Notes under the pieces: generated by a model | Told to the model about the DNA's origin: nothing | What the model saw: the letters and a program-made list of their open reading frames with translations, nothing else | Database searches by the model: none | Source of the DNA: Escherichia coli 042 | Lineage (GTDB): Bacteria; Pseudomonadota; Gammaproteobacteria; Enterobacterales; Enterobacteriaceae | Length of the DNA stretch: 64,000 nt | Assembly (NCBI RefSeq): GCF_000027125.1 | Contig: NC_017626.1 | Strand: one strand, 5' to 3' | Program-made: the position numbers and the translations under genes | Shown here: positions 37,847 to 52,452 of the stretch, in pieces | Layout: every line of letters starts with the position of its first letter | Numbering within the stretch: the stretch's first letter is position 1

Positions 37847-38155
37847 ATGAAAAAAGTATTAGCTCTGGTTGTTGCCGCTGCTATGGGTCTGTCTTCTGCT
37901 GCCTTTGCTGCAGAGACTGCGACCACACCTGCTCCGACTGCGACGACCACCAAAGCAGCGCCGGCGAAAACCACACATCATAAAAAACAGCATAAAGCAG
38001 CACCTGCCCAGAAAGCGCAGGCGGCTAAAAAGCATCATAAAAATGCCAAAGCTGAACAGAAAGCTCCTGAACAAAAAGCGCAGGCAGCGAAGAAACACGC
38101 CAAGAAACACAGCCATCAGCAACCGGCAAAACCTGCTGCACAACCCGCAGCGTAA
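37847..38155 (+). CDS. asr: Acid shock protein Asr
   Basis: [21 protein letters not shown] signal peptide, Lys/Ala/His-rich repeats. Confidence 0.9.
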
Positions 38156-38247
38156 GTTATCAATAGTAATGCTGGCGCGCCCCCTCGCGCCTGAAAATTA
38201 CGGTGCTAAGCGGATAACGTTTAGCACCGCCTTTAGCGGAGGGTAGT

Positions 38248-38331
38248 ATGGTGGGCCGTTATCGCTTTGAGTTCATTCTTATCATCCTTATTTTATGCGC
38301 ACTGATTGCCGCCCGTTTTTATCTTTCCTGA
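38248..38331 (+). CDS. ydgU: Small membrane protein YdgU (27 aa)
   Basis: Hand translation MVGRYRFEFILIILILCALIAARFYLS. Confidence 0.65.
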   Translation: MVGRYRFEFILIILILCALIAARFYLS

Positions 38332-38430
38332 TCGTAGTTATCTGATTTTACTCCCACTTTCATCCCGTCCCGTCTATAGTATTTATGAGGGTTTGCTTTT
38401 AATAATCATAATTACCCACCAGAGTGTGAT

Positions 38431-39252
38431 ATGCGTACAACCATTGCTGTAGTGTTGGGTGCAATTAGTTTGACGTCTGCTTTTGTGTTTGCAGATAAAC
38501 CAGACGTTGCCAAATCGGCAAACGATGAGGTCAGCACCCTGTTTTTTGGTCATGATGATCGTGTGCCAGTGAATGACACGACCCAATCACCGTGGGATGC
38601 GGTTGGCCAACTGGAAACGGCCAGCGGCAATTTATGTACGGCGACGCTGATTGCACCCAATCTGGCATTAACGGCAGGACACTGTTTATTGACGCCGCCA
38701 AAGGGTAAAGCCGATAAAGCGGTAGCGCTGCGTTTCGTGTCAAATAAAGGTCTTTGGCGCTATGAGATCCACGACATAGAAGGCCGCGTTGATCCGACAC
38801 TGGGAAAGCGGTTAAAAGCAGATGGGGATGGCTGGATTGTACCTCCCGCAGCTGCGCCCTGGGATTTCGGTTTGATTGTGCTACGTAATCCCCCTTCTGG
38901 CATTACACCGTTGCCGTTATTTGAGGGAGATAAAGCCGCGCTTACCGCCGCATTAAAAGAGGCAGGTCGTAAAGTGACTCAGGCGGGATACCCTGAAGAT
39001 CATCTCGATACGTTGTACAGTCATCAAAACTGTGAAGTGACTGGCTGGGCGCAAACGTCGGTGATGTCGCATCAGTGCGATACCTTGCCGGGTGACAGCG
39101 GTTCGCCTCTGATGTTGCATACCGATGACGGCTGGCAATTAATTGGGGTGCAAAGTTCGGCTCCTGCCGCGAAAGATCGCTGGCGCGCCGATAACCGGGC
39201 CATTTCTGTTACCGGTTTTCGCGACAGGCTGGATCAACTGTCGCAAAAATAA
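38431..39252 (+). CDS. ydgD: Secreted trypsin-like serine peptidase YdgD
   Basis: Signal peptide; TAGHC and GDSGSP catalytic motifs. Confidence 0.9.
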
Positions 39253-39290
39253 TGTTCAAACGCTGCCCGACAGCGCGGGCAGCGTGTTCA

Positions 39291-39620
39291 TCAGGCAAGT
39301 TTCACCATGATCATTCCAGCCAACAGCAAGACCAGGCCAATCCAGCCTTTACGATTTAACCGTTGACCAAACAAGATCCAACCTGCGGCTAACGTGGCGG
39401 CAATACCAAACCCGCCCCACAATGCATAAGCGACAGACAAGTCGATCCCTTTAACGGCCTGAGAAAGCGCACTAAAGGCAGCCAGCACCGCCGACAGGGA
39501 GAGCAAGCCAAATATTTTGCGACGAAAGCCGTCAGAAAATTTCAAAAAGACGTTAGCAACGATTTCCAGCACGATTGCCAATGCCAGCCAGGCGGCGTGA
39601 ACCCATTCAAACTGCGCCAT
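39291..39620 (-). CDS. mdtI: SMR-family spermidine exporter subunit MdtI
   Basis: 109 aa, 4 TM; overlaps mdtJ. Confidence 0.95.
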
Positions 39621-39972
39621 GGTTCACCTCCAGTTCAGGTTTACGCGCTTTACGGGTACCTGATTTGATCAATACAATCCCGGCCACCAGGGTGGTTAAC
39701 CCGGCAATTTTCATCAGCGATAAACTTTCGTCGAATAACAAAACGCTAAACAAGGTAATAAATAAAATACCGATACCTTCCCACAGCGCATAAGCCACGC
39801 CTAAGGCGATTTTTTTAACGGCGAAAGAGAGAAATATATACGACAGAGAAATCATCACCAGCATTAAAATAAAGCCGCCATTTCCCTCACTGACGCTCGC
39901 CCATTTCATGGACAGCGTACCGGTAATTTCTGTAGCAATAGCCAGGCCTAATAAAATCCAATAAATATACAT
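39607..39972 (-). CDS. mdtJ: SMR-family spermidine exporter subunit MdtJ
   Basis: 121 aa, 4 TM. Confidence 0.95.
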
Positions 39973-40383
39973 TGTCCTTCTCCTGCAAGAGAATTATTTT
40001 AATTTTCGCTTAATTCAGCGAAACCAAAGTAAAGTGGTCAAGCCCCGCGCTTAGCGCAAGCTTTGGCAGAAGAAAGGACTAAAGCGCGTTGCGCCAGTGC
40101 TGCTCACCTACGAGCAAGATAGTGGATGAGGTACGAAGATGGGTAAATGTAGAAAATAACGTCCTGAACAAATTGTCCATAATATTACAATTATCCGCAG
40201 TGTTGCTTCTCGTCATCGCGGATGATAATTGTCCTCGGTAGTTGAACACGCCTGATTTGTATCATAGCTTAAGAATTAACTCAAAATATTTTCACTTCTT
40301 TACCTGAGCGGTTTGATTTTCGTTATGATGACGGAGCGAAAAAGACATTATTATTAGCAAAGGAAGAAAAAACGGGGACAAGC

Positions 40384-40530
40384 ATGGCAAAGCCGATCAT
40401 CACGCTCAATGGCCTAAAAATCGTCATTATGTTGGGAATGCTGGTCATTATTCTCTGCGGTATCCGTTTTGCCGCCGAGATCATCGTGCCGTTTATTCTC
40501 GCATTATTTATTGCTGTTATATATAACTAA
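40384..40530 (+). pseudogene. tqsA: tqsA 5' fragment (first 46 native codons, then island-derived I-Y-N-stop)
   Basis: [46 protein letters not shown] then frame leaves native sequence at 40521. Confidence 0.85.
40512..40520. repeat. attL core direct repeat TGCTGTTAT
   Basis: Identical 9-mer at 51546-51554; joining the flanks restores ...[18 protein letters not shown]... of TqsA. Confidence 0.65.
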
Positions 40531-40593
40531 TTTCACTTAACGCATTGATTTAATTAAATGATTTGCACTACAAAAAGTGCCATAAATCGCAAA

Positions 40594-40617
40594 ATGACTA
40601 CACCAGTGACTACACCG
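40594..40617. repeat. Arm-type tandem repeat ATGACTACACC-AGTGACTACACCG near attL
   Basis: Same 23-24 nt tandem motif present at 51395-51418 near attR in same orientation. Confidence 0.55.
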
Positions 40618-40934
40618 TTCGGTGCACTGTATGAAACAACGTGGAACAAATAGACACAAGAAATATACAGGCGGGTCATCTTTCCAGGGGGAAGCGCGCT
40701 AATTCATGAGGGGCGTTAATGTTGATATGGGGATCCCCATAACGGGGCTACCGGATTTTTTTTCCGGTTAACTGTTAATCAGGCTGGTGGGCTTTACCTG
40801 TTTTGTAGGAGTGGTCATTATGACCATTCAGACAATGACCTTAATCAGAACTTTTCGCTAAAAAATGACGTTGGTCACGTCGTCCGGAAAGCACAAAATC
40901 CCGTCAATTTTTAATTAACGGTTAAACCGTCTTT

Positions 40935-40980
40935 TGTCACGGCGTGTCACTGGTTGTCACTCTCCGTCACGGTATGTCGC
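40935..40980. repeat. Five GTCAC-type half-sites phased at exactly 10 bp
   Basis: tGTCACggcgtGTCACtggttGTCACtctccGTCACggtatGTCGC; GTCAC is the reverse complement of the GTGAC of the arm repeats. Confidence 0.5.
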
Positions 40981-40986
40981 TACTCG

Positions 40987-41268
40987 TTAACGCCGTAACC
41001 GCTCCGGCTTCTTCCAGTGGTACGTAATTTTCTCCGTTTCCCGATACAGTGCCACGCGGCGATTGTAGGCCAGCATTTCAAGAACGCGGATCCGTATGTT
41101 GCGCATATCCACATCATTAAGCTGGATACCATCACGGCGCATCACCTCAGCAACCACACGCGCGTAATTTTCGGCGGTCACGCTGTCCGGCTGCGTGGCC
41201 TGTTCGTCATGCTGCTGGCTGATTCCGGTAACGCGGCGGATTAATCCCAGTAGTTCGGCTTCTGTCAT
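40987..41268 (-). CDS. Hypothetical island protein (93 aa from MTEAELLGLIRR)
   Basis: ORF; start chosen downstream of cos copy 1 with GGGGG SD-like upstream; longer ORF-track N-terminus would read through cos. Confidence 0.35.
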   Translation of the reverse strand: MTEAELLGLIRRVTGISQQHDEQATQPDSVTAENYARVVAEVMRRDGIQLNDVDMRNIRIRVLEMLAYNRRVALYRETEKITYHWKKPERLRR

Positions 41269-41301
41269 TGTGCCCCCATCGCTCTGATAGTCTGGTGTCG
41301 T

Positions 41302-41366
41302 CGGGTCCTTCCTGGAATTATGGCCCGTTACGGGGCGGCGACCTCGCGCGTTTTCACTATTTATGA
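41302..41366 (+). other. Lambda-type cos site copy 1 (cosN GGGCGGCGACCT at 41333-41344), followed by ACCGGACAT repeats at 41383-41479
   Basis: cgggtccttcc...gttacgGGGCGGCGACCTcgcgcgttttcactatttatgaaaatttt closely matches recalled lambda cosQ-cosN-left-end sequence. Confidence 0.7.
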
Positions 41367-41547
41367 AAATTTTTCGGGATCCATGTCCGGTTTCTCTGCA
41401 AGTTAACCATATGAAAAATATAAAAACATGCTTTCCATGAACCGGACATGCGCAAAAAACAGACACTAAAACCGGACATCGAACCAGTTAACCGAAAGTG
41501 TGCACAAATCACATGCATTGCTGCGAGTGATTAACAAGTTATCGGCT

Positions 41548-41982
41548 TTACTGTTCTGTATCGGCTGATTGCTCCATGCTGGCACGGCGAACGCTTATGG
41601 CATGACGCCACCCAGCCAGAAAGCCAGCCATTTTATTTCGTGCCTTGCTCACATCTTCCGGTGAATAGCCGTAAATCTGCAAACCTTCATCAAATCGATG
41701 TTCTGTTTCTTCACTGGAGTACTCGTCACGCTCAGATGAAAGCAGCCTGGCAAACATAATTTTTTCCAGCGCACTGGTTTCTACGTGATATCTGATGGTC
41801 TCAAGACGGCTTTTACCTGAAGACCAAAGCAATGTATGCCCGATGTGATAACCGCCAGACTTTCCGCGATCCGCATTAAGATACGGCATCCCCTGTTTGG
41901 TCCATGCGCGAATAGTGGTTCTGTTAACCTTGAAATGTTCAGCTATTTCCTGCTGACTTACAAAACAAGCTTTATCAATCAT
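41548..41982 (-). CDS. Nu1-like small terminase / packaging-specificity protein (144 aa)
   Basis: N-terminus VSQQEIAEHFKVNRTTIRAWTKQGMPYL parallels lambda Nu1 VNKKQLADIFGASIRTIQNWQEQGMPVL winged-HTH. Confidence 0.65.
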   Translation of the reverse strand: MIDKACFVSQQEIAEHFKVNRTTIRAWTKQGMPYLNADRGKSGGYHIGHTLLWSSGKSRLETIRYHVETSALEKIMFARLLSSERDEYSSEETEHRFDEGLQIYGYSPEDVSKARNKMAGFLAGWRHAISVRRASMEQSADTEQ

Positions 41983-42049
41983 AATGTTACCTTAACTGCA
42001 TGGTTAAATATTAATCAAGTGGTGGTGGTGTCACCTTCACGGAAAAACG

Positions 42050-42115
42050 TCATAAATAGCGAAAACCCGCGAGGTCGCCGCCCCGTAACGGGCCATAATT
42101 CCAGGAAGGACCCGT
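42050..42115 (-). other. Lambda-type cos site copy 2, inverted relative to copy 1 (cosN complement at 42072-42083), 88 bp upstream of terS
   Basis: Reverse complement reads ...gttacgGGGCGGCGACCTcgcgggttttcgctatttatga; 63/65 identity to copy 1. Confidence 0.7.
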
Positions 42116-42137
42116 AAAAAAGCCGGATTTCTCCGGC
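42115..42137 (-). terminator. Rho-independent terminator ending capsid operon
   Basis: Minus strand GCCGGAgaaaTCCGGC followed by T-tract. Confidence 0.6.
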
Positions 42138-42143
42138 CTTGTC

Positions 42144-42557
42144 TCAGATGTTTTTCAGTATGCGATCGATGTCGCCGTCATCGCCCTGGTTTCTGCCATC
42201 GTATGCCATGCCAGCTGATACGGCTTGCGGGCTGTGCATGTCCATAAAGTTTTCAAAGGCTGCGGTAAGTTCCGGCGCAACCTTCGGACGTTCCTGCTCT
42301 ATGGTCATGCTAAGGATGCTTTTAGCCGTACCAACATCGATACAAGGCACGTTTGCCATTGCACGCAACAGCGGCTGATAGTCTTTATGCTCATGAAGCG
42401 CCATAATCGCATCAGCGCGCGGCTTGTCCTGCTCTTCCAGTTTGTTTAGTTGATGTACGGCCTCATAGGTTGATAAACCTCTGTCAGCCATTGCCCGCGC
42501 TTCGACTTTAAATTTACTCGCCAGCGGTAGCGTCATGATGCTTTCATTCGTTGCCAT
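42144..42557 (-). CDS. Hypothetical island protein (137 aa), last gene of capsid operon
   Basis: ORF co-directional and tightly spaced after D-like gene. Confidence 0.45.
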   Translation of the reverse strand: MATNESIMTLPLASKFKVEARAMADRGLSTYEAVHQLNKLEEQDKPRADAIMALHEHKDYQPLLRAMANVPCIDVGTAKSILSMTIEQERPKVAPELTAAFENFMDMHSPQAVSAGMAYDGRNQGDDGDIDRILKNI

Positions 42558-42569
42558 CGTTCCCCCTGC

Positions 42570-42905
42570 TTATCGGGCCAGCGGCTGAACGGATACGCCG
42601 GAACCCGCAAAGGCGGCGCATTTTTTCGCATCGGTGTCGACGCTCTCAGGCCAGTTAACGGCGGCAATATTGAATATCCCCGTCTTGTAACACTGTGCTG
42701 ATTTCTGCTTTGACGTGTCCACAGGGTACGAGGTCAGATAAACAGCCTTGCCAGATTCCTGACCATCCCACGGCTTAAACTCGCCATTGTCTGCCAGCAT
42801 CAGCGGGGTAAATTCCTGAATAACGCCAGCATCAGCGGCAAAATGTACCAACGTCGTGGATACCTGCTGACTGCCTGCAAATAACTCAATGTATGGAGTG
42901 TCCAT
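42570..42905 (-). CDS. Head decoration protein, lambda gpD homolog (111 aa)
   Basis: TPLMLADNGEFKPWDG...YKTGIFNIAAVNWPESVDTDAKKCAAFAGSGVSV parallels lambda D TPLMLDTSSRKLVAWDG...[35 protein letters not shown]. Confidence 0.8.
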   Translation of the reverse strand: MDTPYIELFAGSQQVSTTLVHFAADAGVIQEFTPLMLADNGEFKPWDGQESGKAVYLTSYPVDTSKQKSAQCYKTGIFNIAAVNWPESVDTDAKKCAAFAGSGVSVQPLAR

Positions 42906-42917
42906 AGAATCCCCCCG

Positions 42918-43973
42918 TTAACCAATTTTGACGGTAACAAATTTGCGAATATCTGCCGGTACCGGCTGCGGTGCACTGTGTGTCTGCACGTACTCAATCG
43001 CCGGATCGCCGTCCTCAATCCAGTTTTTCGGGTAAAACATGTTTTGTGTTGCGCCCGTTCTTACCGCTTCCTGATCCATTATCGCACCATAGGCCACCAG
43101 CCCTTTATTGTTGGTGTTACCCAGGACCAGCAAATCAGGCTCAAGGAAATATTTTTCGGTACCATCGCTGTCAGTGTATTTGCCGGAATAGACGATAAGG
43201 GCCAGATCACCAAGATAGCCTTTAAAGCTCACCACTTCGCCCAGGTTTTTACAGGCCAGTTCGGCGGCGGATTCTGAACCACGGGAAAGATCGTACAGCT
43301 CACGGAATTTTTTAAAGCTGCGTAATGTGCGCCATACCTCAGCGCCCATAATCATGACGTTTGCGGGGCAACCAGCCTGATCAGCATAAAGCTCGATGTC
43401 ATAGATTGGGTCGTGCATGTCTTTATCCTGCTCGGACCATTTTTTACCCTTGGCCTGCTCTATGATGCAGTTTTCCGGTATTTTCCAGTCGATTTCATAG
43501 CGTTCTATGCCTTCGCCCTCAATGATGTTTTTTCCGGTCGTTACCGCATTCACCGCCAGCCATTCCACGCGTGCCTTAATGGCGTTTATCTGGCGGCGCA
43601 TGTTGCCAGTAATCAGGCGCATACGGCGATAGGTAGGGTCGTTAAGCTGTGCCGGATCTTCTCCAGCCATGCGCATGATGGTTTTCGTTGGATCGATTTC
43701 GTGCTTTGGCTTCATGTAGCCAGGTTTGATTGTGCTGGTTTCGTACCCTTTATCGCGCTGAACCTGGCTACCCACCATAGGCGAACAAAACGCCGACATG
43801 GTGACTTCTTCAATGTCCAGGGTATCCAGCATGATGTTTTGCGTGCTGAATGTCGCCACGTTCGGGAAAAACAGCGTGGTAAACAGAGGGCTGAATTTAA
43901 AATCCGCAATATCCCCGCGATTCAGGTACATGAAAAGCTGGTTAGTGTTAAGTGCCGTTGCTTTGCCTGCCAT
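42918..43973 (-). CDS. Major capsid protein, lambda gpE homolog (351 aa)
   Basis: KPGYMKPKHEIDP, DPTYRRMRLITGNMR, VSFKGYLGDLALIVYSGKY, YPKNWIEDGDPA align along recalled lambda E. Confidence 0.85.
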   Translation of the reverse strand: MAGKATALNTNQLFMYLNRGDIADFKFSPLFTTLFFPNVATFSTQNIMLDTLDIEEVTMSAFCSPMVGSQVQRDKGYETSTIKPGYMKPKHEIDPTKTIMRMAGEDPAQLNDPTYRRMRLITGNMRRQINAIKARVEWLAVNAVTTGKNIIEGEGIERYEIDWKIPENCIIEQAKGKKWSEQDKDMHDPIYDIELYADQAGCPANVMIMGAEVWRTLRSFKKFRELYDLSRGSESAAELACKNLGEVVSFKGYLGDLALIVYSGKYTDSDGTEKYFLEPDLLVLGNTNNKGLVAYGAIMDQEAVRTGATQNMFYPKNWIEDGDPAIEYVQTHSAPQPVPADIRKFVTVKIG

Positions 43974-44179
43974 TATTCACCCCCATAATTTTTATGCATC
44001 CCAAGCGCCGCAAGTAAATAAGAGCGTACAAGTGAACCTATCGACGGCTCCGGCGTCATCAGCGGATCCAGTCCAGCCGCAACGCCAGCTTCATAGTTTT
44101 TTTTGTGGCGCTGCTTGAGCACCTCCACGATTTCGGGGCTTATGTACACCGAAACACCGCCTTTTTTCTCTTCAGCCAT
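43973..44179 (-). CDS. Small protein upstream of capsid gene, possible ribbon-helix-helix fold (68 aa)
   Basis: MAEEKKGGVSVYISPEIVEVLKQRHKK; GAGGA SD; stop overlaps capsid start. Confidence 0.35.
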   Translation of the reverse strand: MAEEKKGGVSVYISPEIVEVLKQRHKKNYEAGVAAGLDPLMTPEPSIGSLVRSYLLAALGMHKNYGGE

Positions 44180-44208
44180 AGTAAGAAATTCCTCTTCGAC
44201 TAAAAAAA

Positions 44209-44236
44209 TCATAACTGGATGTTTATCCAGTTATGA
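44209..44236. promoter_or_regulatory. Perfect 12-bp inverted repeat TCATAACTGGAT-gttt-ATCCAGTTATGA in capsid-operon promoter region
   Basis: Seen directly; 30 bp upstream of operon start; second palindrome ATTGCATtttATGCAAT at 44248-44264. Confidence 0.5.
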
Positions 44237-44388
44237 TTATAATCAGAATTGCATTTTATGCAATGATATTGAGTTATGTTGCAAATTATGAAATGATTAT
44301 CCCGATCACGAACGCCAGTGCATCCAAAAACCTCATATGCAAAAGCCCGATAAGAACCCTCTGACCTTATCGGGCTTTTTTTGGGCGC

Positions 44389-44410
44389 AAAAAAGCCGGA
44401 TTGCTCCGGC
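44389..44410 (-). terminator. Rho-independent terminator after 74-aa gene
   Basis: Same GCCGGA-loop-TCCGGC module plus T-tract; preceded by second hairpin 44345-44382. Confidence 0.55.
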
Positions 44411-44430
44411 TATGTGTGCTGTGTGCTGGC

Positions 44431-44655
44431 TCAGTCTCTGATCTCTTTCAGAAATTCTATCAATGCATCTATCTGTTCAGGATTTACCGCCAGCATTTCA
44501 CCGGATAGAGCACATCTCACAAAACCATGCTGATCCTTTTCAATCAGTGCGCCCGTCTCCAGGAATGCGCGGTAATCATTGATGCTCATCGTCTCCATGT
44601 TGTCAGCATGGTATTTATCACGCTGTTTTAATATCTCATCAAATTTCATCGGCAT
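44431..44655 (-). CDS. Hypothetical island protein (74 aa)
   Basis: ORF bracketed by terminators. Confidence 0.4.
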   Translation of the reverse strand: MPMKFDEILKQRDKYHADNMETMSINDYRAFLETGALIEKDQHGFVRCALSGEMLAVNPEQIDALIEFLKEIRD

Positions 44656-44751
44656 TGTTTTTTTCCTCTGTTGTGTCTGTTTGTTTCAGATAGTAACTAT
44701 GCCTGACCGTGACGAAAACCCGGTAATGCGCCATACCGTTTCAACTGGTGC

Positions 44752-44774
44752 AAAAAAAGCCGGATTTCTCCGGC
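44752..44774 (-). terminator. Rho-independent terminator after PerC-like gene
   Basis: GCCGGAgaaaTCCGGC plus T7 on minus strand. Confidence 0.6.
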
Positions 44775-44781
44775 TGTTTGA

Positions 44782-45054
44782 TTAGCTGTCCTGGTAATTG
44801 CGCCATATTTCATCACCAGCACCATCTATACCCATTTCGGCATAAGTGCGATCGACTGCCTTTTTCAGGTCTCCGAAATTATCCGGCGGCTCCGGTGCCC
44901 TCTGTGCCTTCCTTGAACATTCCAGCCGTCGCATCGTGATGTGATGCCGTTCCTTGTCTGTCTCCACCAGCTGCATGACTTCACCCCATCGCGCCGCCGC
45001 CCTCCGGTAAAAGCCTTTCGCCTCCAGTTCCTCCGCTATGCGGTCATGTACCAT
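44782..45054 (-). CDS. PerC/Pch-family transcriptional regulator (90 aa)
   Basis: AEELEAKGFYRRAAARWGEVM resembles recalled Pch/PerC signature (…LEAQGLWRRAAARW…); GAGGGGG SD before ATG. Confidence 0.55.
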   Translation of the reverse strand: MVHDRIAEELEAKGFYRRAAARWGEVMQLVETDKERHHITMRRLECSRKAQRAPEPPDNFGDLKKAVDRTYAEMGIDGAGDEIWRNYQDS

Positions 45055-45064
45055 CGTCACCCCC

Positions 45065-45475
45065 TCAGAACGAAATATCATCACCGTAAGGGTCATCGCC
45101 TCCCGCTGGTGGCTGATTACCCTGTGTGCCTGTGGTTTTGCGTCTGTTCCCGCCTGGACGTGCCGCGCGGGCACTGATTACGCTGTCTGCGATAACCTGC
45201 CAGCCCTGCCGCGTTTCTCCGTTCTGTCCGGTCCACTGGCTTACCTGCATCGTGCCGGATACGCTGGCAACATCGCCTTTTTGATGTTTAGCCAGGAAGT
45301 CGGCCTGTTTGCCAAATGCGATGACCGATAACCATAACGTCGCCTGTCCGTCCTGTGCCTGGCTGCATGGCAAAGATACCGCCATACGCGCCAGCGTCAT
45401 CGGTGTGCCCTTGCTGGTCTGTTTTACCTGCGGGTCGTCCACCAGCCGCCCGTAAGCGGCTATCTGTGCCGTCAT
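45065..45475 (-). CDS. ssb: Single-stranded DNA-binding protein (SSB)
   Basis: OB-fold region and Gly/Pro-rich tail ending DDPYGDDISF (cf. E. coli SSB C-terminal DDDIPF). Confidence 0.8.
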   Translation of the reverse strand: MTAQIAAYGRLVDDPQVKQTSKGTPMTLARMAVSLPCSQAQDGQATLWLSVIAFGKQADFLAKHQKGDVASVSGTMQVSQWTGQNGETRQGWQVIADSVISARAARPGGNRRKTTGTQGNQPPAGGDDPYGDDISF

Positions 45476-45723
45476 AATTCCACCTCTCCGGTTTTAACGT
45501 TGATGGTTGTTACCTGTTCCGCTTCGGCAATCTCCCGTTCTGTCAGCGTGGCAAAGTTTGCCGCCGCCGTGGTCATGAATGCGCTTATCAGGTCGGGATG
45601 TTCCTTCGCGTATCCTTCCCGCGTGTGGCGGTCTATCGTTCTGATTGCCACCTTTAAGGTGTGCTCAGTCATGTCTAACGCTTTATATTTTGGCTCTGTT
45701 CTGTCTCTGCGTTTTTGGGTCAT
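45472..45723 (-). CDS. Hypothetical small protein between ori and ssb
   Basis: ORF; start uncertain (45723 or 45672). Confidence 0.3.
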   Translation of the reverse strand: MTQKRRDRTEPKYKALDMTEHTLKVAIRTIDRHTREGYAKEHPDLISAFMTTAAANFATLTEREIAEAEQVTTINVKTGEVEL

Positions 45724-45734
45724 TTCTCGCAACC

Positions 45735-45926
45735 TCTCACTTTTTCGCCTCACTTTTTCAAGCGTCTCACTTCGTCGCAGTTGGGATTTTCGGTTTTTCT
45801 ATGTGTGTGTTTCATAAGTATTTTTTTACCCCTCACTTTTGAGGATGTATACAGGTCGAAAAGTGAGGGAGAGCGGGCTAATTTTGGCCCTCTTTCTATC
45901 CCCCTCGCTTTTGCTCCTCACTTTTA
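45735..45926. repeat. Iteron array (CTCACTTTT, at least 6 copies, both orientations) with AT-rich spacer: putative island replication origin
   Basis: Copies at 45735, 45748, 45766, 45832, 45858 (inverted), 45916; directly 3' of pri-rep gene. Confidence 0.55.
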
Positions 45927-47324
45927 TAGCGGCGCTACATCATCCCCATCGATACGAATAACCCCATCTTTTTCCAGCTTGTACAGCCAGCGCCGGAAGT
46001 TTTTCATTTCATACCCCAGCTTTTTCATGTCATCACGTAACAGCGGGATCGTGCACTTGTCGCCGTTCTGTGTGCGTGAACGGATGCACCCCCATAGCGC
46101 GGTATGGTTTTCCGTCTTGTTCCCTGCCTCCTCGATGCGCTCCAGTTCAACAGGAGGGCGCGGATCATCCACCACCACCAGCGACGTGATTAATTCACCG
46201 TCAGCGTCGGTAAAAAGCTCCACCACGCGTAAGTCATATGCGGCTTCTTTGAGTTCCTCCGCGTCCTTCATTTTGGTGCATGAGATAACCAGCGCTTCGC
46301 TTCCTGCGTCCTCCCTGCGTATCCGGTATTCAGCATCCAGCGAAGCACGAAATGCACTGGAACCGCGCGCGCCTTTCGTCTCATCCTTGCCGGAATGGTG
46401 AACCACCAGCACCGTGGCCCCTGTGCGTCGTTTCAGTTCGTCACAACCACGGATAAACGCCCCCATATCACGGGAATCATTTTCATCATTCCCACCAAAG
46501 CAACGCGCCAGCGTATCCAGAATAATCATGCGTACAGGTTTACCCGTTTCCCGCTCCACCTGACGGGCAGCGATAACCATTTCATCAACATCAAGCGGGG
46601 CAGCCGGAAAGATGGGGCGGTTTACCAGATACAGATTTTTCACCTGCTCATCGTGCACAACCTCCCAGGCTTTTACACGACGCGGAACACCTATACCGCC
46701 TTCACCAACCACATAGAGAACCGCACCATGTGCAACCCTGCGGCCTCCCCACTGGCGACCAGTGGCAACATGGCACGCCCACGATCCAGCAAGGAATGAT
46801 TTATAGGACCCGCTAGCCCCGTATATGCTGCATAGCGATACCGCCGGAATAATCCCCTTAACCACGTAATCCAGTTGCGTGTCGTATCCGGTAGATCCAA
46901 CGCTCATCGGTAGCGTGGTTTTTCGCTGGTGTTTTTTTTCTTCCGCCGGCTCTTTCCCGCGCACCCGTTCCAGGTATTCGCGCCAGTTCTCCCGCATATG
47001 GCTGTGCATCCCTTCGGGGTAATAATTCGCATCAGTTACACCCGCCGCCGCCAGCTTGTGCGCAATGGCATTAATATTTGATGGCCTGATGTGGCCTGCC
47101 TTGTACAGCCGGACACAATAGCGCCCCTCGTCGATGATTCTCAGGTCTGCCAGTTCATCCAGTTGATCATCAGCCAGCACAACGGGAGGCACATTATCGC
47201 CAGCCAGTCGCCCGTCCTGTTCCTGCCACTGTTTCGCATGTGCCCAGGCATCACTACCCGCAAAAATAATGACTTCGGTCATCTTGTCGTAAGGCTGTTT
47301 TTTTAAGTTCGGTGCGCTTTTCAT
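45924..47324 (-). CDS. Primase/replicase-type AAA ATPase (RepA/AAA_25-like, 466 aa)
   Basis: Walker A GASGSYKS, Walker B MIILDTLARCFGG, VVHHSGKDETKGARGSSAF sensor region. Confidence 0.8.
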   Translation of the reverse strand: MKSAPNLKKQPYDKMTEVIIFAGSDAWAHAKQWQEQDGRLAGDNVPPVVLADDQLDELADLRIIDEGRYCVRLYKAGHIRPSNINAIAHKLAAAGVTDANYYPEGMHSHMRENWREYLERVRGKEPAEEKKHQRKTTLPMSVGSTGYDTQLDYVVKGIIPAVSLCSIYGASGSYKSFLAGSWACHVATGRQWGGRRVAHGAVLYVVGEGGIGVPRRVKAWEVVHDEQVKNLYLVNRPIFPAAPLDVDEMVIAARQVERETGKPVRMIILDTLARCFGGNDENDSRDMGAFIRGCDELKRRTGATVLVVHHSGKDETKGARGSSAFRASLDAEYRIRREDAGSEALVISCTKMKDAEELKEAAYDLRVVELFTDADGELITSLVVVDDPRPPVELERIEEAGNKTENHTALWGCIRSRTQNGDKCTIPLLRDDMKKLGYEMKNFRRWLYKLEKDGVIRIDGDDVAPL

Positions 47325-47620
47325 TTCTTGCCCCTGAATCCGTTAACCATGGTTTTCAGCTTCTGGATGTTTGCCCGTGCCCTGGCGTTGCTGGTGGGCA
47401 CGTTATGCGGCGCGGTCTGTACCAGAGAAAAATCACGCCGGAACTGATAAACAGGCATCACGCAATCATATTCGTAACCTTCACGGCGGTAGGTTACGCG
47501 CCGTTCTTCCACGTCCTTAATCATTACCGTGCCGCCGTACTGGTCGCGGTAAATATCACCGCGCGTAAATTTAGGGTGAGTGTTGCCACTGGCAGTTAAG
47601 CCAGAATATTTAAGTTTCAT
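47321..47620 (-). CDS. Hypothetical island protein (99 aa)
   Basis: ORF in tight operon; stop overlaps pri-rep start. Confidence 0.45.
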   Translation of the reverse strand: MKLKYSGLTASGNTHPKFTRGDIYRDQYGGTVMIKDVEERRVTYRREGYEYDCVMPVYQFRRDFSLVQTAPHNVPTSNARARANIQKLKTMVNGFRGKK

Positions 47621-47625
47621 TATTT

Positions 47626-47859
47626 TTATTCTCCGGTGTGCTGTTCTTTATATCTGTCGTGCAATAGATCTATTTCTTGCAGTTCCATTATTACAGGCTC
47701 AAGAAGCGTTATTAATGCTGTGGCAATTCTTGATTTTTGTTTGTCGCGTTCATTGTCGCCAAGTGTTTCAAGCCATATGCGCAATATTTCCATCATGTTT
47801 TCACTGTGAGAAAGTGCAAGAAATGCGCGGTCTATTGTTTGGTGGTAAATATCACGCAT
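47626..47859 (-). CDS. Hypothetical island protein (77 aa)
   Basis: ORF in operon. Confidence 0.4.
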   Translation of the reverse strand: MRDIYHQTIDRAFLALSHSENMMEILRIWLETLGDNERDKQKSRIATALITLLEPVIMELQEIDLLHDRYKEQHTGE

Positions 47860-48319
47860 GGCTTACATCCTCAGGAAATTTTCTTCTATAACGCGCCTCT
47901 GCCACATATTCCGCATAATCGGCGGCGATATTCAGTACATCAAGCCCCGTTGATTTATATTCTCTCGTGGAAAGTAAGAAAAAAGCCGCTCTAATAAGTT
48001 CTGGCATTGACGAAAGCGCATCAGCCGCATCATCAGGAACGCCGGAAAATTCCTGTTTCAGGGAATTAAAACGATCATCACGCATAACCCCCCCCCCATT
48101 TTCACAATCAGCAATCAGGATAGCTTTGGCCTCATTCAGCGCCGTATCAGCACTAAATTGCATGACAGCCAGTGAGTGAGGAACGAAAGCACCGGCATAT
48201 TCTGTTTCGCTGGTGGCGTGCTTATGTGCCCTGTCCGCGATAACAGAAATATCAATCAGCGCGTGCATCAGCGTTTTGATGGCTTCGGCGGCTGCGTCCG
48301 GTGTGGTTTTATTGTGCAT
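47852..48319 (-). CDS. Hypothetical island protein (155 aa)
   Basis: ORF in operon. Confidence 0.45.
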   Translation of the reverse strand: MHNKTTPDAAAEAIKTLMHALIDISVIADRAHKHATSETEYAGAFVPHSLAVMQFSADTALNEAKAILIADCENGGGVMRDDRFNSLKQEFSGVPDDAADALSSMPELIRAAFFLLSTREYKSTGLDVLNIAADYAEYVAEARYRRKFPEDVSHA

Positions 48320-48521
48320 AAAGCATCCCCTGAATATTCGTGTTAATCATTCCGGCACGTTTTGTGATTTCCTGTAATGATTCCCTTGTGGCGACAATTG
48401 CTTCATCTGGTAAGTGGTAATTACACACCACGCGACCTTTATCCACATTGACCAGTAGCTGCCCTGTGAATTTCTCACGAAACTGAATGCGGTTAAGGTC
48501 AGTAAGTGACAGATTAATCAT
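48309..48521 (-). CDS. Hypothetical island protein (70 aa)
   Basis: AGGAGG immediately upstream of ATG at 48521. Confidence 0.45.
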   Translation of the reverse strand: MINLSLTDLNRIQFREKFTGQLLVNVDKGRVVCNYHLPDEAIVATRESLQEITKRAGMINTNIQGMLYAQ

Positions 48522-48711
48522 GGCGCACCTCCTGACGAATACGGGCGGCAAATACAGCAACACAACCGGACGGGCAACGGTTACGCGCTTCGCGTTCCGT
48601 CCAGGCGGTTACGTGGATGATTTGAGATTCTCCGGCACTCAGTGCCAGAAAACGCCACACAAAGGCCGTTTGTGTGTGTACAAGGTGTGGTATATGATTT
48701 ACAGCAACCAT
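48514..48711 (-). CDS. Hypothetical island protein (65 aa), first gene of leftward operon
   Basis: AGGAG SD upstream of ATG at 48711. Confidence 0.4.
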   Translation of the reverse strand: MVAVNHIPHLVHTQTAFVWRFLALSAGESQIIHVTAWTEREARNRCPSGCVAVFAARIRQEVRHD

Positions 48712-48804
48712 AACGGCTCCTAGTTTACGTTGTTGGTTAGAAGCCCTGCGAGTGGTAACGACACTTGCGGGGCTTTGTCTTTTCATCGATTACCTTGATA
48801 AAGG

Positions 48805-48884
48805 TGTCAGCCACTATATTAGTAACGGGTGTCAGCCACGTCAATAGTGTTTTTCCGTTTTCTTGTGTGTATACTGTCAGCCAC
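48805..48884. promoter_or_regulatory. Three direct repeats TGTCAGCCAC in divergent promoter region, with TATACT -10-like element
   Basis: Repeats at 48805-48814, 48830-48839, 48875-48884. Confidence 0.5.
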
Positions 48885-48905
48885 CTAATAACGAGGAAAT
48901 CAGAT

Positions 48906-49085
48906 ATGGCAACAAAAGCAGTTAATGCAAAATCCAAAAAGCTTGAGGCTCGAGTACCACACGCAATAGCTGATGCTGTAGAAAATTTAAAGGAAGATGG
49001 CGAAAGTACAGGGCAATTTATCGTTTCGGCACTTGAAGGCGAGATCAAACGCCGCCAGCGCCGCAAGGCCAAAGAATCAGAATAA
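48906..49085 (+). CDS. Ribbon-helix-helix (CopG/Arc-like) putative repressor (59 aa)
   Basis: KKLEARVPHAIADAVENLKEDGESTGQFIVSALEGEIKR fits beta-strand/helix/helix RHH pattern; divergent from main operon. Confidence 0.5.
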   Translation: MATKAVNAKSKKLEARVPHAIADAVENLKEDGESTGQFIVSALEGEIKRRQRRKAKESE

Positions 49086-49127
49086 TCACTATCAGCGCCG
49101 TGGTGTGAGGTATTACGGCGCATTGCT

Positions 49128-49316
49128 ATGCAGGACAACACAATGACCGATAAAGAATTGACCAAAACATTATCACCGGCACGGAAAAGACGGCGCAGAA
49201 AGATAGAGCATGAATCAGAAAGATTCGCACCATGTGCTTTTGCCCTTGAGCAATTCCTTAAAGAGTACAGGGAAAAGCGCTCATTGCAGGTATGGCAACG
49301 AACTGAACCAGACTGA
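49128..49316 (+). CDS. Hypothetical small basic protein (62 aa or shorter from MTDKEL)
   Basis: ORF followed by hairpin plus T7 at ~49410-49440. Confidence 0.3.
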   Translation: MQDNTMTDKELTKTLSPARKRRRRKIEHESERFAPCAFALEQFLKEYREKRSLQVWQRTEPD

Positions 49317-49585
49317 TTGCATTGCCCACCAGCCTGATAGCGGCTATCATCCCCGTGCTTATGTTTGGGATCACACACACAAACGGCGCAGCGGGTTATC
49401 TGTTCAGAAAGGCGGCTCCATTTCGGGGCCGCTTTTTTTATACCTGAAAAACCCCAATTTTGTTGTTTTTCAGTTTCACCAGGGCGAACGAATCCCCGCC
49501 CACGTTCTGGCGTATATTCAATCTTCATGGTTATAGCTCTGTGTTCAGATGATTGATGTGTGGCGGCTGCGTGCCGCCAGCGTGA

Positions 49586-49774
49586 TTAATGAACTGCCTT
49601 GCAGCTATCCTTCCAGGCCAGAACCTCGGATAAAGACCAGCCAACGGAACGACCGCCAAGTTTACGACGTGATGGGAATTGTCCGGCCTTTTCCAGGCGG
49701 TAGCGACACGTACGGCTAAGGCCGGTTAGTTTTTCGCATTCTTTTTCACGTATAAACCGATCAGTGCTTAACAC
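49586..49774 (-). CDS. alpA: AlpA-family excision/transcription regulator
   Basis: 62 aa MLSTDRFIREKECEKLTGLSRTCRYRLEKAGQFPSRRKLGGRSVGWSLSEVLAW. Confidence 0.8.
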   Translation of the reverse strand: MLSTDRFIREKECEKLTGLSRTCRYRLEKAGQFPSRRKLGGRSVGWSLSEVLAWKDSCKAVH

Positions 49775-50048
49775 TATTGCCCCCCCTTTCGTTTCTTAAA
49801 GAGTCATCAGGTGTCTTATTGTGTCGTATTGTTCCCGCTAGAGTGATGAATGGCAAATATTGAGGATGTATGATTTACAGAAAATGAAACAGTAAGAATA
49901 AAATCTTTTAAATTCATGTTAATACAAAGGCATAAAATATTGTTTCATGCCTTTTTTCTCGCTCTTTAAAGAGTGATTCGCTAGTGTATAAAAAACCAGT
50001 GACACATTAAAAATCAGCCACTTATAAATCTGTATGCTTTTTCGCCTC

Positions 50049-50123
50049 TTGTTCGTGGTTGTTCCACATTGTTGCTCATTGTTGCACGTTGTATCTGTTC
50101 GCATATACAGTATGCGCATACTG
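50049..50123. promoter_or_regulatory. Five TTGTTSC-like repeats at ~10-bp spacing plus 16-bp perfect palindrome CAGTATGCGCATACTG (50108-50123) in int-alpA intergenic region
   Basis: Seen directly. Confidence 0.4.
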
Positions 50124-50140
50124 AAAAAACACGAAAAAAA

Positions 50141-51370
50141 TTATTTTCTTCTGGCTACTGGTAGCGTGGTTACGTTTTCATGTGTTCCCGCCAGTATCCC
50201 TAACCGCTCCGTCCACATATCCAGCGCATTGCGTTTAGCATCCAGATAACGGGAATGATTATAAACTCGCTGCATTCCTGGCATCTGGTGGCCTGTAAGC
50301 TGCTCCACGACATGCGGATCAACGCCTAAATCGTTCAGCATGGTTGTAAAGGTGCGCCGGATGTCATGCAGTGACCAGTGAGGATGATTAAGCCTCCTGT
50401 GCGCTAATCTTCCATACTGCGATACGCTGGCCTCCTGTTTCACTTCCCCCAGCAATAAGCCCGTGTGCCTGTTCTGCTCCACCAGCTGCGTGACGAACGG
50501 CAGGATCGCTTCCGGTATGGGCCGGAATATTGCGACCTTCGTTTTGCTGTGCTCCTTCGGAACGGTCCATAGCATTTCCGTAAAATCCCACTCCCCGATC
50601 TCCGATAACCTCAGTTCTACCGTTCTGGCTCCGAAGACAATCAGGAGGCGGATTAACGCGACGTAGTAAGGGGAGAATATTTTTTTGTCCAGTGCCTGCA
50701 ATAATTCGCCAAGTTCTTTGTTACTTAAGACACGTTCGCTTATATCCGGTTTTTTCCCAACGTCCGCCACGTTCAGATCGTCCAGAACGTTGCTGATTGC
50801 ATAGCGCCGCCTACGGCAGAACTTAAGCGCCTGTTTGCACGCCTGTAGCACGAATCCGGCAGTAACAGGCGTTCGCTTTGCCACCTGGTCAAAACAGGCC
50901 AGCCAGTGCCGTAGCTCGCATTTATCCAGCGGCATAGCACCAATCTGCTGTATTACGTGATTATTAAGTCGCCTTTTCAGGGCGATATAATCCACGCGGT
51001 TTTCCTTTACGTAATACTCAAGCCAGTAGGTGAGCGCATCGCCAACCGTTACCGGCTTTAACGCTTCCTGTACGGTGTAATTAAGCTCATGACGTGGATT
51101 TTTCCCCTCTGCCAGCCATGCGCGACACTGGGCGGCTTTTTCCCTGGCTGATTTCAGGCTCAGATCAGGATAACTTCCCAGCTTAATGCGTTCGGGTCGT
51201 GTCTCCCTTCCCGTTCCGGCCCTGTATGTGAAATACCAGGTCAATTTCCCTGATGTTAAATATTTCACGCTCAGGTTTCCGCCATCACTATAAAACGTGT
51301 TTTTCTCCGCTGGCTTACCATGAAGTTTCCTTAGCAAGGTATCGCTCAGTTTGTTCATTGCTCTGCTCAC
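50141..51370 (-). CDS. int: P4-type tyrosine integrase (start GTG 51370 or ATG 51358)
   Basis: 409-aa ORF; catalytic region ...HDIRRTFTTMLNDLGVDPHVVEQLTGHQMPGMQRVYNHSRY; adjacent to attR. Confidence 0.9.
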   Translation of the reverse strand: MSRAMNKLSDTLLRKLHGKPAEKNTFYSDGGNLSVKYLTSGKLTWYFTYRAGTGRETRPERIKLGSYPDLSLKSAREKAAQCRAWLAEGKNPRHELNYTVQEALKPVTVGDALTYWLEYYVKENRVDYIALKRRLNNHVIQQIGAMPLDKCELRHWLACFDQVAKRTPVTAGFVLQACKQALKFCRRRRYAISNVLDDLNVADVGKKPDISERVLSNKELGELLQALDKKIFSPYYVALIRLLIVFGARTVELRLSEIGEWDFTEMLWTVPKEHSKTKVAIFRPIPEAILPFVTQLVEQNRHTGLLLGEVKQEASVSQYGRLAHRRLNHPHWSLHDIRRTFTTMLNDLGVDPHVVEQLTGHQMPGMQRVYNHSRYLDAKRNALDMWTERLGILAGTHENVTTLPVARRK

Positions 51371-51394
51371 GTTTTACCCCCTCTTTACGAAAAA

Positions 51395-51418
51395 GTGACT
51401 ACACCAGTGACTACACCG
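51395..51418. repeat. Arm-type tandem repeat GTGACTACACC-AGTGACTACACCG near attR
   Basis: Matches 40594-40617. Confidence 0.55.
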
Positions 51419-51545
51419 ATCGTTGCACAAAGGGCTACAACGTGAAACAAGCTGGAACAAGGAAAATCACAAATCTGTTGATAATCAAAAACATAATGCA
51501 CAGCCTGAAACATTATGAAACAGCAAAAAACACCAAATGATAAAA

Positions 51546-51554
51546 TGCTGTTAT
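51546..51554. repeat. attR core direct repeat TGCTGTTAT
   Basis: Identical to 40512-40520. Confidence 0.65.
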
Positions 51555-51567
51555 TCTTAACCCGCTG

Positions 51568-52452
51568 GTGCAACACATGGTCCGCTGGCGAGTGCCGCGT
51601 GTACTGGCGGTGTCGATTTTGATGACCATCATCGTGATGGCGATGGTGTTGCTGTTAGCTTATCTGGGTTCCGCGCTCAACGAGTTGACGCGGACGTTAC
51701 CGCAATATCGCAACTCTATTATGACGCCGCTGCAAGCGATTGAACCGTTGTTGCAACGCGTAGGGATTGATGTCTCAGTTGACCAACTGGCGCATTACAT
51801 TGATCCGAACGCGGCGATGACGTTGCTCACCAACTTATTGACGCAGTTATCTAATGCCATGTCATCAATATTTTTATTGCTGCTGACGGTGCTGTTTATG
51901 CTGCTCGAAGTGCCACAATTGCCCGGAAAATTTCAGCAAATGATGGCGCGTCCGGTTGAAGGGATGGCGGCGATTCAGCGTGCGATTGACAGTGTTTCTC
52001 ATTATCTGGTGCTGAAAACAGCCATCAGCATCATCACCGGCCTGGTCGCCTGGGCGATGCTCGCCGCACTCGATGTTCGCTTCGCTTTTGTCTGGGGATT
52101 GCTGGCCTTTGCGCTTAATTACATCCCTAATATTGGTTCAGTTCTCGCAGCAATTCCCCCTATCGCTCAGGTACTGGTGTTTAATGGCTTCTACGAAGCG
52201 TTGTTGGTGCTGGCGGGATATCTGCTGATTAATCTGGTCTTCGGCAATATTCTGGAGCCGCGCATCATGGGACGTGGGCTGGGGCTTTCGACATTGGTGG
52301 TATTTTTGTCGTTGATTTTTTGGGGATGGTTGTTAGGACCGGTGGGTATGCTGCTTTCCGTGCCGTTGACAATTATTGTCAAAATTGCGCTTGAACAAAC
52401 AGCGGGAGGTCAAAGCATCGCCGTTCTGTTAAGCGATCTCAATAAAGAGTGA
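51568..52452 (+). pseudogene. tqsA: tqsA 3' fragment (lacks first ~55 codons; internal GTG/ATG present)
   Basis: [26 protein letters not shown]... continues TqsA frame to native stop. Confidence 0.85.

Follow-up and report, generated by a model that had tools for sequence, protein, structure and literature searches.

What holds a phage-inducible chromosomal island (PICI) silent in its Gram-negative host is the question that the region analyzed here raises, the global repressor of such islands having been called unclear (PMC6092414). The region lies in a 64,000-nucleotide stretch of the Escherichia coli 042 chromosome (NC_017626.1), referred to below as the window, within an island that has the gene set of a capsid-forming PICI. 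Between the activator gene alpA (49774..49586, minus strand) and an icd-like gene (48711..48514, minus strand), the first of the leftward replication and packaging operon, a gene for a 59-residue protein runs in the opposite direction (48906..49085, plus strand) and is preceded by three short repeats. Comparative genomic evidence suggests, with a probability of about 0.7, that this protein is an autoregulated, immunity-type maintenance repressor of the early/replication operon, complemented by an antisense RNA lock and by induction through read-through from alpA. Protein and sites change together from island to island, which points to the "off switch" so far missing for islands of this family.

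The encoded protein and its predicted operators

The gene starts with the ATG at 48906, its stop codon ends at 49085, and a Shine-Dalgarno sequence, GAGG (48893-48896), is located eight bases before the start. Its product belongs to the YlcI/YnfO family (NCBIfam NF041551; 60.6 bits against a cut-off of 30, E = 1.1e-16) and to phrog_949, for which PHROGs lists the function as unknown; a Pfam scan gave no match even at E <= 10, and PDB sequence and profile searches returned nothing meaningful. An AlphaFold (AF2) model built from 30 homologues, with a predicted local distance difference test score (pLDDT) of 89, has an extended N-terminus followed by two helices, i.e., the strand-helix-helix topology of ~45 residues that defines the ribbon-helix-helix (RHH) superfamily. 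When two linker-joined copies were modelled, a canonical RHH dimer was obtained (pLDDT ~90 in structured parts), each half of which consists of a strand (residues 10-18) and two helices (19-28 and 35-58); strands 10-18 and 91-99 form the antiparallel N-terminal ribbon, a feature seen in the model only. The turn between the helices, D-G-E-S-T, contains the usual glycine and serine/threonine. By these models, the protein is a dimer of the RHH (Arc/MetJ/CopG) superfamily, made up of the RHH domain and a short basic tail, without a separate domain for a partner. The original prediction had recognized by eye an RHH signature in a 59-residue protein transcribed away from the main operon; the coordinates and the NCBIfam family agree with it, and the monomer and tethered-dimer models, together with the D-G-E-S-T turn, indicate that the signature was read correctly. 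Residues Q9, N11, and R13 of Arc contact bases, and in a weak hhalign match they fall opposite residues 12, 14, and the invariant R16, respectively.

The same prediction had described three exact repeats in a 194-bp gap, the third at a TATACT element, and all of them are present. The repeat TGTCAGCCAC occurs at 48805, 48830, and 48875 in the gap between the icd-like start and the RHH ATG (48712-48905), and these are its only exact copies in 64 kb, for an expectation of ~0.12 on both strands; the third copy shares its first base with the final T of TATACT (48870-48875), and 8 nt separate its end from the Shine-Dalgarno sequence. The true repeat unit proved to be an 11-mer, GTG-N5-CAC, or CTG-N5-CAC in the third copy, which defines three predicted operators on the plus strand: site 1 (GTGTCAGCCAC, 48804..48814), site 2 (GTGTCAGCCAC, 48829..48839), and site 3 (CTGTCAGCCAC, 48874..48884).

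Homologues were collected across Enterobacterales, with 73 loci fetched and that of the island EcCICFT073 added. The small open reading frame (ORF) is conserved in 73 loci, its start codon being fixed 31 nt from site 3, and three boxes at about -101, -76, and -31 from the ATG recur in ~60 distinct related loci (of ~70 related islands), a recurrence that argues against chance as the origin of the three-site layout. Among the relatives, site 1 lies at -98 to -112 in either orientation, site 2 at an almost invariant -76 followed by a conserved (G/T)TCAA, and site 3 at an invariant -31 directly after TATACT, the upstream consensus being AAGTG-N5-CAC-nTCAA, a T-rich stretch, and then GTATACTG-N5-CACC. 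In many classes, site 1 is inverted with respect to sites 2 and 3, which fits a dimer reading the box, since the ends of the box are symmetric and its center is asymmetric. Further operator copies were sought within the island, for example at the alpA promoter; just one-mismatch matches were found, at about the chance rate, and none of them near alpA.

Co-variation of protein and sites

The central 5 bp of the boxes vary between loci, agree within each locus, and track protein residues 11-15. The cores number at least 20, and each of them recurs within its locus. Residues KKLEA at positions 11-15 accompany the core TCAGC, KRFDV accompanies TCGGA, QKMSA accompanies GCACC, QQLNA accompanies AATCG, LQVSV accompanies AACAC, QKIHA accompanies TGTTC, QSVTA accompanies TCTTA, QMTTV accompanies AAATA, QQIVS accompanies AATGC, and QALKA, the EcCICFT073 class, accompanies TGGCC; further classes beyond these ten obey the same rule. 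Among protein pairs that are 65-80% identical outside the strand, identical residues 11-15 go with an identical core in 39 of 48 pairs, compared to 31 of 347 pairs with different residues. Of all alignment columns, 14, 12, and 13 are the most informative for the core. Within the KKLEA class, all 33 site bases are kept between E. coli and Xenorhabdus (33/33), the remainder of the region being 54-60% identical.

AlpA served as a control. Where AlpA is at least 90% identical and the strands differ, a core is shared in 0/34 pairs; where AlpA is less than 70% identical and the strand is the same, the core is shared in 32/32 pairs. The cores thus do not track AlpA, which was rejected as the reader of the boxes. 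The best reading of the co-variation is that the repeats behave as operators of the 59-residue protein, in which the invariant Arg16 probably contacts the conserved GTG/CAC ends and residues 12-14 probably read the central 5 bp. In the table of proteins and sites, the natural specificity code of a minimal DNA-binding domain is unusually clean, which is of use for the construction of orthogonal repressors.

Several genomes carry multiple islands whose protein/operator classes differ, with as many as four classes in one genome; examples are Xenorhabdus innexi (loci L014, L024, L025, and L056), X. mauleonii (L006, L028, L058, and L062), and Pectobacterium brasiliense (L034, L071, and L072); the two islands of X. 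khoisanae (L064/L065) are of the same class. Co-resident islands usually differ in class, at a frequency that a hand estimate places not clearly above chance.

Predicted promoters, a candidate antisense RNA, and the long open frame

The positions of the sites were compared to those of predicted promoter elements. A leftward promoter (48816..48844, minus strand), the predicted driver of the icd-like gene and replication operon, consists of TTGACG (48844..48839), a 17-nt spacer, and TAATAT (48821..48816), and 61 of 64 distinct upstream regions retain TTGAnn-17/18-TAnnnT. Site 2 is located in the spacer of this promoter and abuts its -35 element, and the predicted start is overlain by site 1, which is situated 1-12 nt downstream of the -10 element. 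For the RHH gene itself, a promoter of presumptive activity is marked by the -10 element TATACT (48870..48875, plus strand), with a poor -35 and a T-rich upstream stretch; TAnnnT stands at this position in 58 of the 64 regions, and TATACT in 48. Site 3 overlaps the end of this -10 element and the predicted start. This geometry is best read as that of a repressor closing both the leftward promoter and its own. Because the co-varying sites fall on the core elements of two conserved promoters, a repressor/operator switch acting on the main operon, as envisaged in the original prediction, is the best reading of the locus. What that prediction missed is that the gap is more than a simple divergent intergenic region: it lies antisense within a long frame linked to alpA and carries a plus-strand RNA structure as well.

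That structure is probably a cis-antisense RNA against the icd-like start, a candidate of ~80 nt (48705..48785, plus strand; the 5' end is a guess) that folds into two stem-loops. The loop of stem-loop 1 carries CUCC opposite the icd-like Shine-Dalgarno sequence, and stem-loop 2 (48740-48776) with its T-rich tail resembles a terminator. The hairpin at 48740-48776 occurs in 44/44 loci and is stabler on the plus strand in 42/44, by a mean of 6.8 kcal/mol, because G-U pairs become C-A mismatches on the other strand. Across both stem-loops, 96% of the cells of 23 pairs are paired and 16 pairs show compensatory changes; 0/500 shuffles do as well, and pairing in slid controls is ~40%. The fold of 48705-48786 has a z score of -4.9. 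A -10-like TATGAT (48693-48698) lies within icd-like codons 5-7, and its TAnnnT is fixed while the encoded residues vary. An Rfam scan of 38000-52000, C4/isrK (CI/seqA) included, gave no match at E <= 1, and a P4-type CI/seqA immunity RNA was rejected on this basis.

The long frame (48737..49528, minus strand) would give 263 aa from an ATG at 49528 and is stop-free from the alpA stop codon (49586-49588). It passes antisense through a second small ORF (ORF62), the RHH gene, the operators, and the hairpin, as well as through the terminator of the RHH-ORF62 transcript (49411..49439, plus strand; fold -21.7 kcal/mol), and ends 26 nt before the icd-like ATG. Since an A-tract precedes the stem and a T-tract follows it, this terminator may in addition halt transcripts that arrive from alpA unmodified or untranslated. 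Of 43 loci, 39 keep the frame open over -160..+177 and in constant phase, compared to 14% of shuffles and 12 of 43 loci for the plus strand; where alpA adjoins, the frame starts within 50 nt of alpA. Icd-like matches were obtained in 27 loci, and in 16 of these the frame continues without a shift into the Icd-like domain. In EcCICFT073, it would yield 428 aa, a faint Bro-N/Ant motif being located close to the N-terminus and the Icd-like domain forming the C-terminus, and the 250 residues between them gave no family match. The missing family match and odd composition of this middle part speak against a normal protein and make a frame kept open for translation more probable than one that encodes a domain.

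The antisense, nested arrangement is reflected in inconsistent RefSeq annotation. The Prokaryotic Genome Annotation Pipeline (PGAP) calls the 263-aa antisense ORF in one genome and omits the RHH gene, and in other genomes (loci L001-L003 and L080-L082 compared) the RHH gene is called and the opposite-strand pieces appear as ash, BRO-N, or Icd-like pseudogene fragments.

Proposed mechanism

In the resting island, RHH dimers would be made from a weak promoter that they shut themselves through site 3. Bound at sites 1 and 2, the dimers would occlude the spacer and start site of the internal leftward promoter and keep it off; free, this promoter would express the icd-like gene and the replication operon. 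The antisense RNA would probably act as a second lock by blocking translation of any icd-like message that escapes. Induction is proposed to begin when the helper switches on alpA, most likely without a helper protein removing the repressor. Kept translated by the long frame, transcripts that start at the alpA promoter could then pass the terminator at 49411-49439 and the antisense RHH gene and reach the operon from upstream, bypassing the repressed promoter. By colliding or pairing with the repressor transcript, they might also disturb synthesis of the repressor.

This route agrees with experiments on related islands. AlpA, which the helper turns on transcriptionally, is required and sufficient for induction of EcCICFT073 and is required in EcCIEDL933 (PMC6092414; bioRxiv 10.1101/2022.09.08.507074), and a reporter fused to the gene downstream of alpA depends on alpA (PMC6092414). 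The AlpA of Pseudomonas aeruginosa is an antiterminator (PMC7969949), which makes read-through plausible if enterobacterial AlpA acts likewise.

Several points weigh against the maintenance-repressor reading. Binding and repression by the 59-residue protein are predictions from sequence and models, and RHH proteins such as AmrZ can activate transcription too. The RHH promoter has no recognizable -35 element, and in some classes, e.g., that of EcCICFT073, site 3 departs from sites 1 and 2 at one or two positions. Operators situated 30-100 bp from the gene, all within 100 bp, must inflate the co-variation numbers by linkage; plain linkage is nonetheless insufficient to account for them, since the three sites of each locus agree and columns 12-14 are more informative than the nearer columns 4-6. 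The long frame of the window is separate from the icd-like gene and its middle part resembles non-protein sequence, and for antitermination the read-through route leans on the AlpA of P. aeruginosa, not on the enterobacterial protein. Published deletions in these islands report no repressor phenotype, because the RHH gene was not annotated or tested there.

A more elaborate version of the mechanism can be offered only tentatively, and as a whole it is rather unlikely. It envisages a three-layer immunity switch composed of an RHH code, in which residues 12-14 match the N5 core, with at least 20 orthogonal groups, and an antisense RNA lock, both antisense within a frame that would be open solely to keep AlpA-driven transcripts translated as they cross the repressor gene and silence it. 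If it were true, the orthogonal immunity groups would let several islands coexist in one cell. Distant YlcI homologues of lambdoid prophages might feed into the same switch.

Alternative explanations

The original prediction likened the arrangement to those that keep islands silent until a helper protein derepresses them. In such an Stl-like scheme, the RHH protein alone would silence the island as its master repressor, and a helper-phage protein would bind it and lift repression. The layout of repressor and operators on the main operon promoter would suit this scheme, as would the many specificity classes, which are expected of a switch under diversifying pressure; the Stl/Rpr repressors of Gram-positive PICIs (SaPIs) resemble the module in the presumed silencing of a replication/packaging operon from a divergent promoter region. 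In addition, lambdoid prophages, the kind that serve as helpers, carry distant relatives of the protein, since ylcI of the K-12 prophage DLP12 falls in phrog_949, and mixed dimers with the repressor of the island are possible in principle. However, Stl is inactivated by helper proteins, whereas the known inducer here is the island's own AlpA (PMC6092414), itself activated by the helper and able to induce the island when overexpressed alone (PMC6092414; bioRxiv 10.1101/2022.09.08.507074). Stl is also a much larger helix-turn-helix protein of unrelated fold and is co-oriented with int, whereas the RHH gene is opposite to int and its product offers no domain for a partner. A tblastn search with the protein against 50,697 phage records gave no match and hence no close homologue. 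A helper-relieved repressor of this kind is judged unlikely on balance. With 59 residues, an RHH fold, and a gene opposite to int, the protein was not assigned to the Stl/Rpr family; it may work like a master repressor. The YlcI protein of K-12 (L083 6252-6446) is just 20% identical to the 59-residue protein, and ylcI of DLP12 stands between nohD and the lysis cassette and runs against the direction of the late genes.

Slightly less probable again is plasmid-style control of copy number, in which the RHH protein and the antisense RNA would damp the replication operon after excision, as CopG and RNAII do in pMV158. CopG and the omega protein of pSM19035 are likewise small RHH repressors of replication genes, and, as in pMV158, such a repressor is combined here with a predicted antisense RNA, aimed at the gene that opens the replication operon, together with the presumed autoregulation through site 3. 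Omega binds short direct or inverted repeats, each taken by one dimer, a behavior reminiscent of the flips in orientation seen at site 1. Unlike the contiguous heptads of these systems, the 11-bp repeats of the island are 25 and 45 bp apart and are placed on promoter elements. The repressor gene also lies outside the operon that it would control, so that, unlike with copG, its dose is not obviously tied to the output of the operon, and the specificity classes, numerous and orthogonal as they are, have more the look of immunity groups. Uncontrolled replication of EcCICFT073 is harmful to the cell (PMC6092414), which would give such control a purpose, and a copy-control role after excision is compatible with, and not exclusive of, the maintenance repressor favored here.

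A toxin-antitoxin pair, with the RHH protein as the antitoxin of ORF62 and the repeats serving only to autoregulate the pair, is very improbable. ORF62 (49128..49316, plus strand; 57 aa if it starts at 49143) is predicted to be co-transcribed with the RHH gene and falls in phrog_21027 (E = 1.6e-15), and it matches no toxin family in NCBIfam or PHROGs. Two of the three sites are located on the other promoter. Relatives of ORF62 were seen only in E. coli-type loci and are absent beside the homologues of other genera, where the RHH gene often stands alone ~220 bp from alpA, as in Xenorhabdus; because the partner is not conserved outside E. coli-type loci, membership in type II toxin-antitoxin systems was rejected.

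Equally remote is the notion that the repeats are bound by AlpA or integrase, or are replication iterons, with the small ORF being incidental: AlpA and integrase genes are always nearby and PGAP skips the small gene in one genome, but the ORF is too well conserved, its start too firmly fixed relative to site 3, and the cores too independent of AlpA, and ~1.3 kb separates the sites from int, with the ends of the island also distant; the known PICI origin is downstream of the primase gene (PMC10111431).

Relation to known systems

The immI region of phage P22, with its Arc and Mnt repressors and sar antisense RNA, has RHH repressors acting on divergent promoters. Two proteins operate in immI and one in the module described here, and immI controls an antirepressor, whereas the island module would control a replication operon. 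A single palindromic operator is bound by a tetramer in immI, in contrast to three separate 11-bp boxes with an asymmetric core.

The closest counterpart of the nested layout is found in the satellite P4. In P4, as summarized in PMC10111431, eta follows the alpA homologue, holds an internal constitutive promoter, the immunity RNA, and a nested shorter product, and its translation keeps late transcripts from terminating. P4 and the island module occupy the same slot, after the alpA/vis homologue and before the primase operon, and share a long frame after alpA, an internal promoter, a shorter C-terminal product (Kil in P4, Icd-like here), and embedded regulators (PMC10111431). The window thus shows the P4-type combination of a long frame after an alpA homologue, a nested shorter C-terminal gene, and an internal promoter, the last being predicted. 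P4 differs in using a same-strand processed RNA that causes termination, whereas the island has a predicted protein repressor and a predicted opposite-strand RNA, both antisense to the frame.

Repression by RHH proteins at divergent promoters (P22), the combination of an RHH protein with an antisense RNA (pMV158), and regulators nested after alpA (P4) are therefore already known. What appears to be new is the assignment of this role to a YlcI/YnfO protein, its presence in both PICI prototypes, the specificity classes of protein and site, and the antisense nesting in an alpA-linked frame; a limited literature search, which is not proof of novelty, found no paper linking YlcI/YnfO or any RHH protein to PICI control. 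The same RHH/operator module is present in the experimentally studied EcCICFT073 and in the EcCIEDL933 type; with both tractable prototypes carrying it, the proposed role is directly testable.

Of 5,426 complete E. coli genomes, at least 773 have a relative of the RHH gene by blastn alone, always on the chromosome and in up to four copies per genome. In E. coli RM10042 (NZ_CP028122; L004 3990-4640), a second regulatory cassette stands in tandem and comprises an icd-like leader and hairpin remnant, an operator that is a palindrome (TGTGTAATGTGTATATACACATAAACACATTA), an unrelated Arc-like protein of 59 aa (phrog_228), and a gene resembling ORF62. This tandem suggests that the slot accepts different small repressors by cassette exchange, as immunity regions do.

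Island setting and flanking elements

The island is located in the E. coli chromosome between pntB and a truncated tqsA, with int on the minus strand (51370..50141). AlpA (phrog_2790) is the known activator of Gram-negative PICIs, and its gene is convergent with the RHH gene. The icd-like gene matches NCBIfam NF033153 (E = 5e-18) and is followed in the leftward operon by small ORFs, DUF4222, a RepA-type helicase, ssb, and perC, and then by capsid, protease, portal, head-tail connector, HNH, and terminase genes; the names were taken from the annotation of a 99.3% identical locus in NZ_CP024127 and from the ORFs of the window. A copy in O157:H7 is 99.5% identical across the region. Loci of sufficient length share one gene order, namely int(-), alpA(-), RHH(+), icd-like(-), DUF4222, primase.

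By published criteria (bioRxiv 10.1101/2022.09.08.507074), the gene set makes the island a capsid-forming PICI of the EcCIEDL933 type: int, alpA, and primase/rep genes follow in order, the island has its own capsid, portal, protease, and terminase genes, and tail and lysis genes are missing. Induction by a helper phage and transfer were demonstrated experimentally for EcCIEDL933 and EcCICFT073 (PMC6092414; bioRxiv 10.1101/2022.09.08.507074).

Between the RHH stop codon and the ORF62 start, a hairpin with an 11-bp stem, GCGCCGTGGTG...TATTACGGCGC (49095-49121, plus strand; -16.9 kcal/mol), is followed by no T-run and is ~80% identical in both cassettes of RM10042. The island is inserted in tqsA (51385-52452), whose N-terminal part is missing beside the integrase gene. 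The same insertion site in tqsA is also used by islands that carry other replication genes, of either the RepA-helicase or the primase/DUF927 type.

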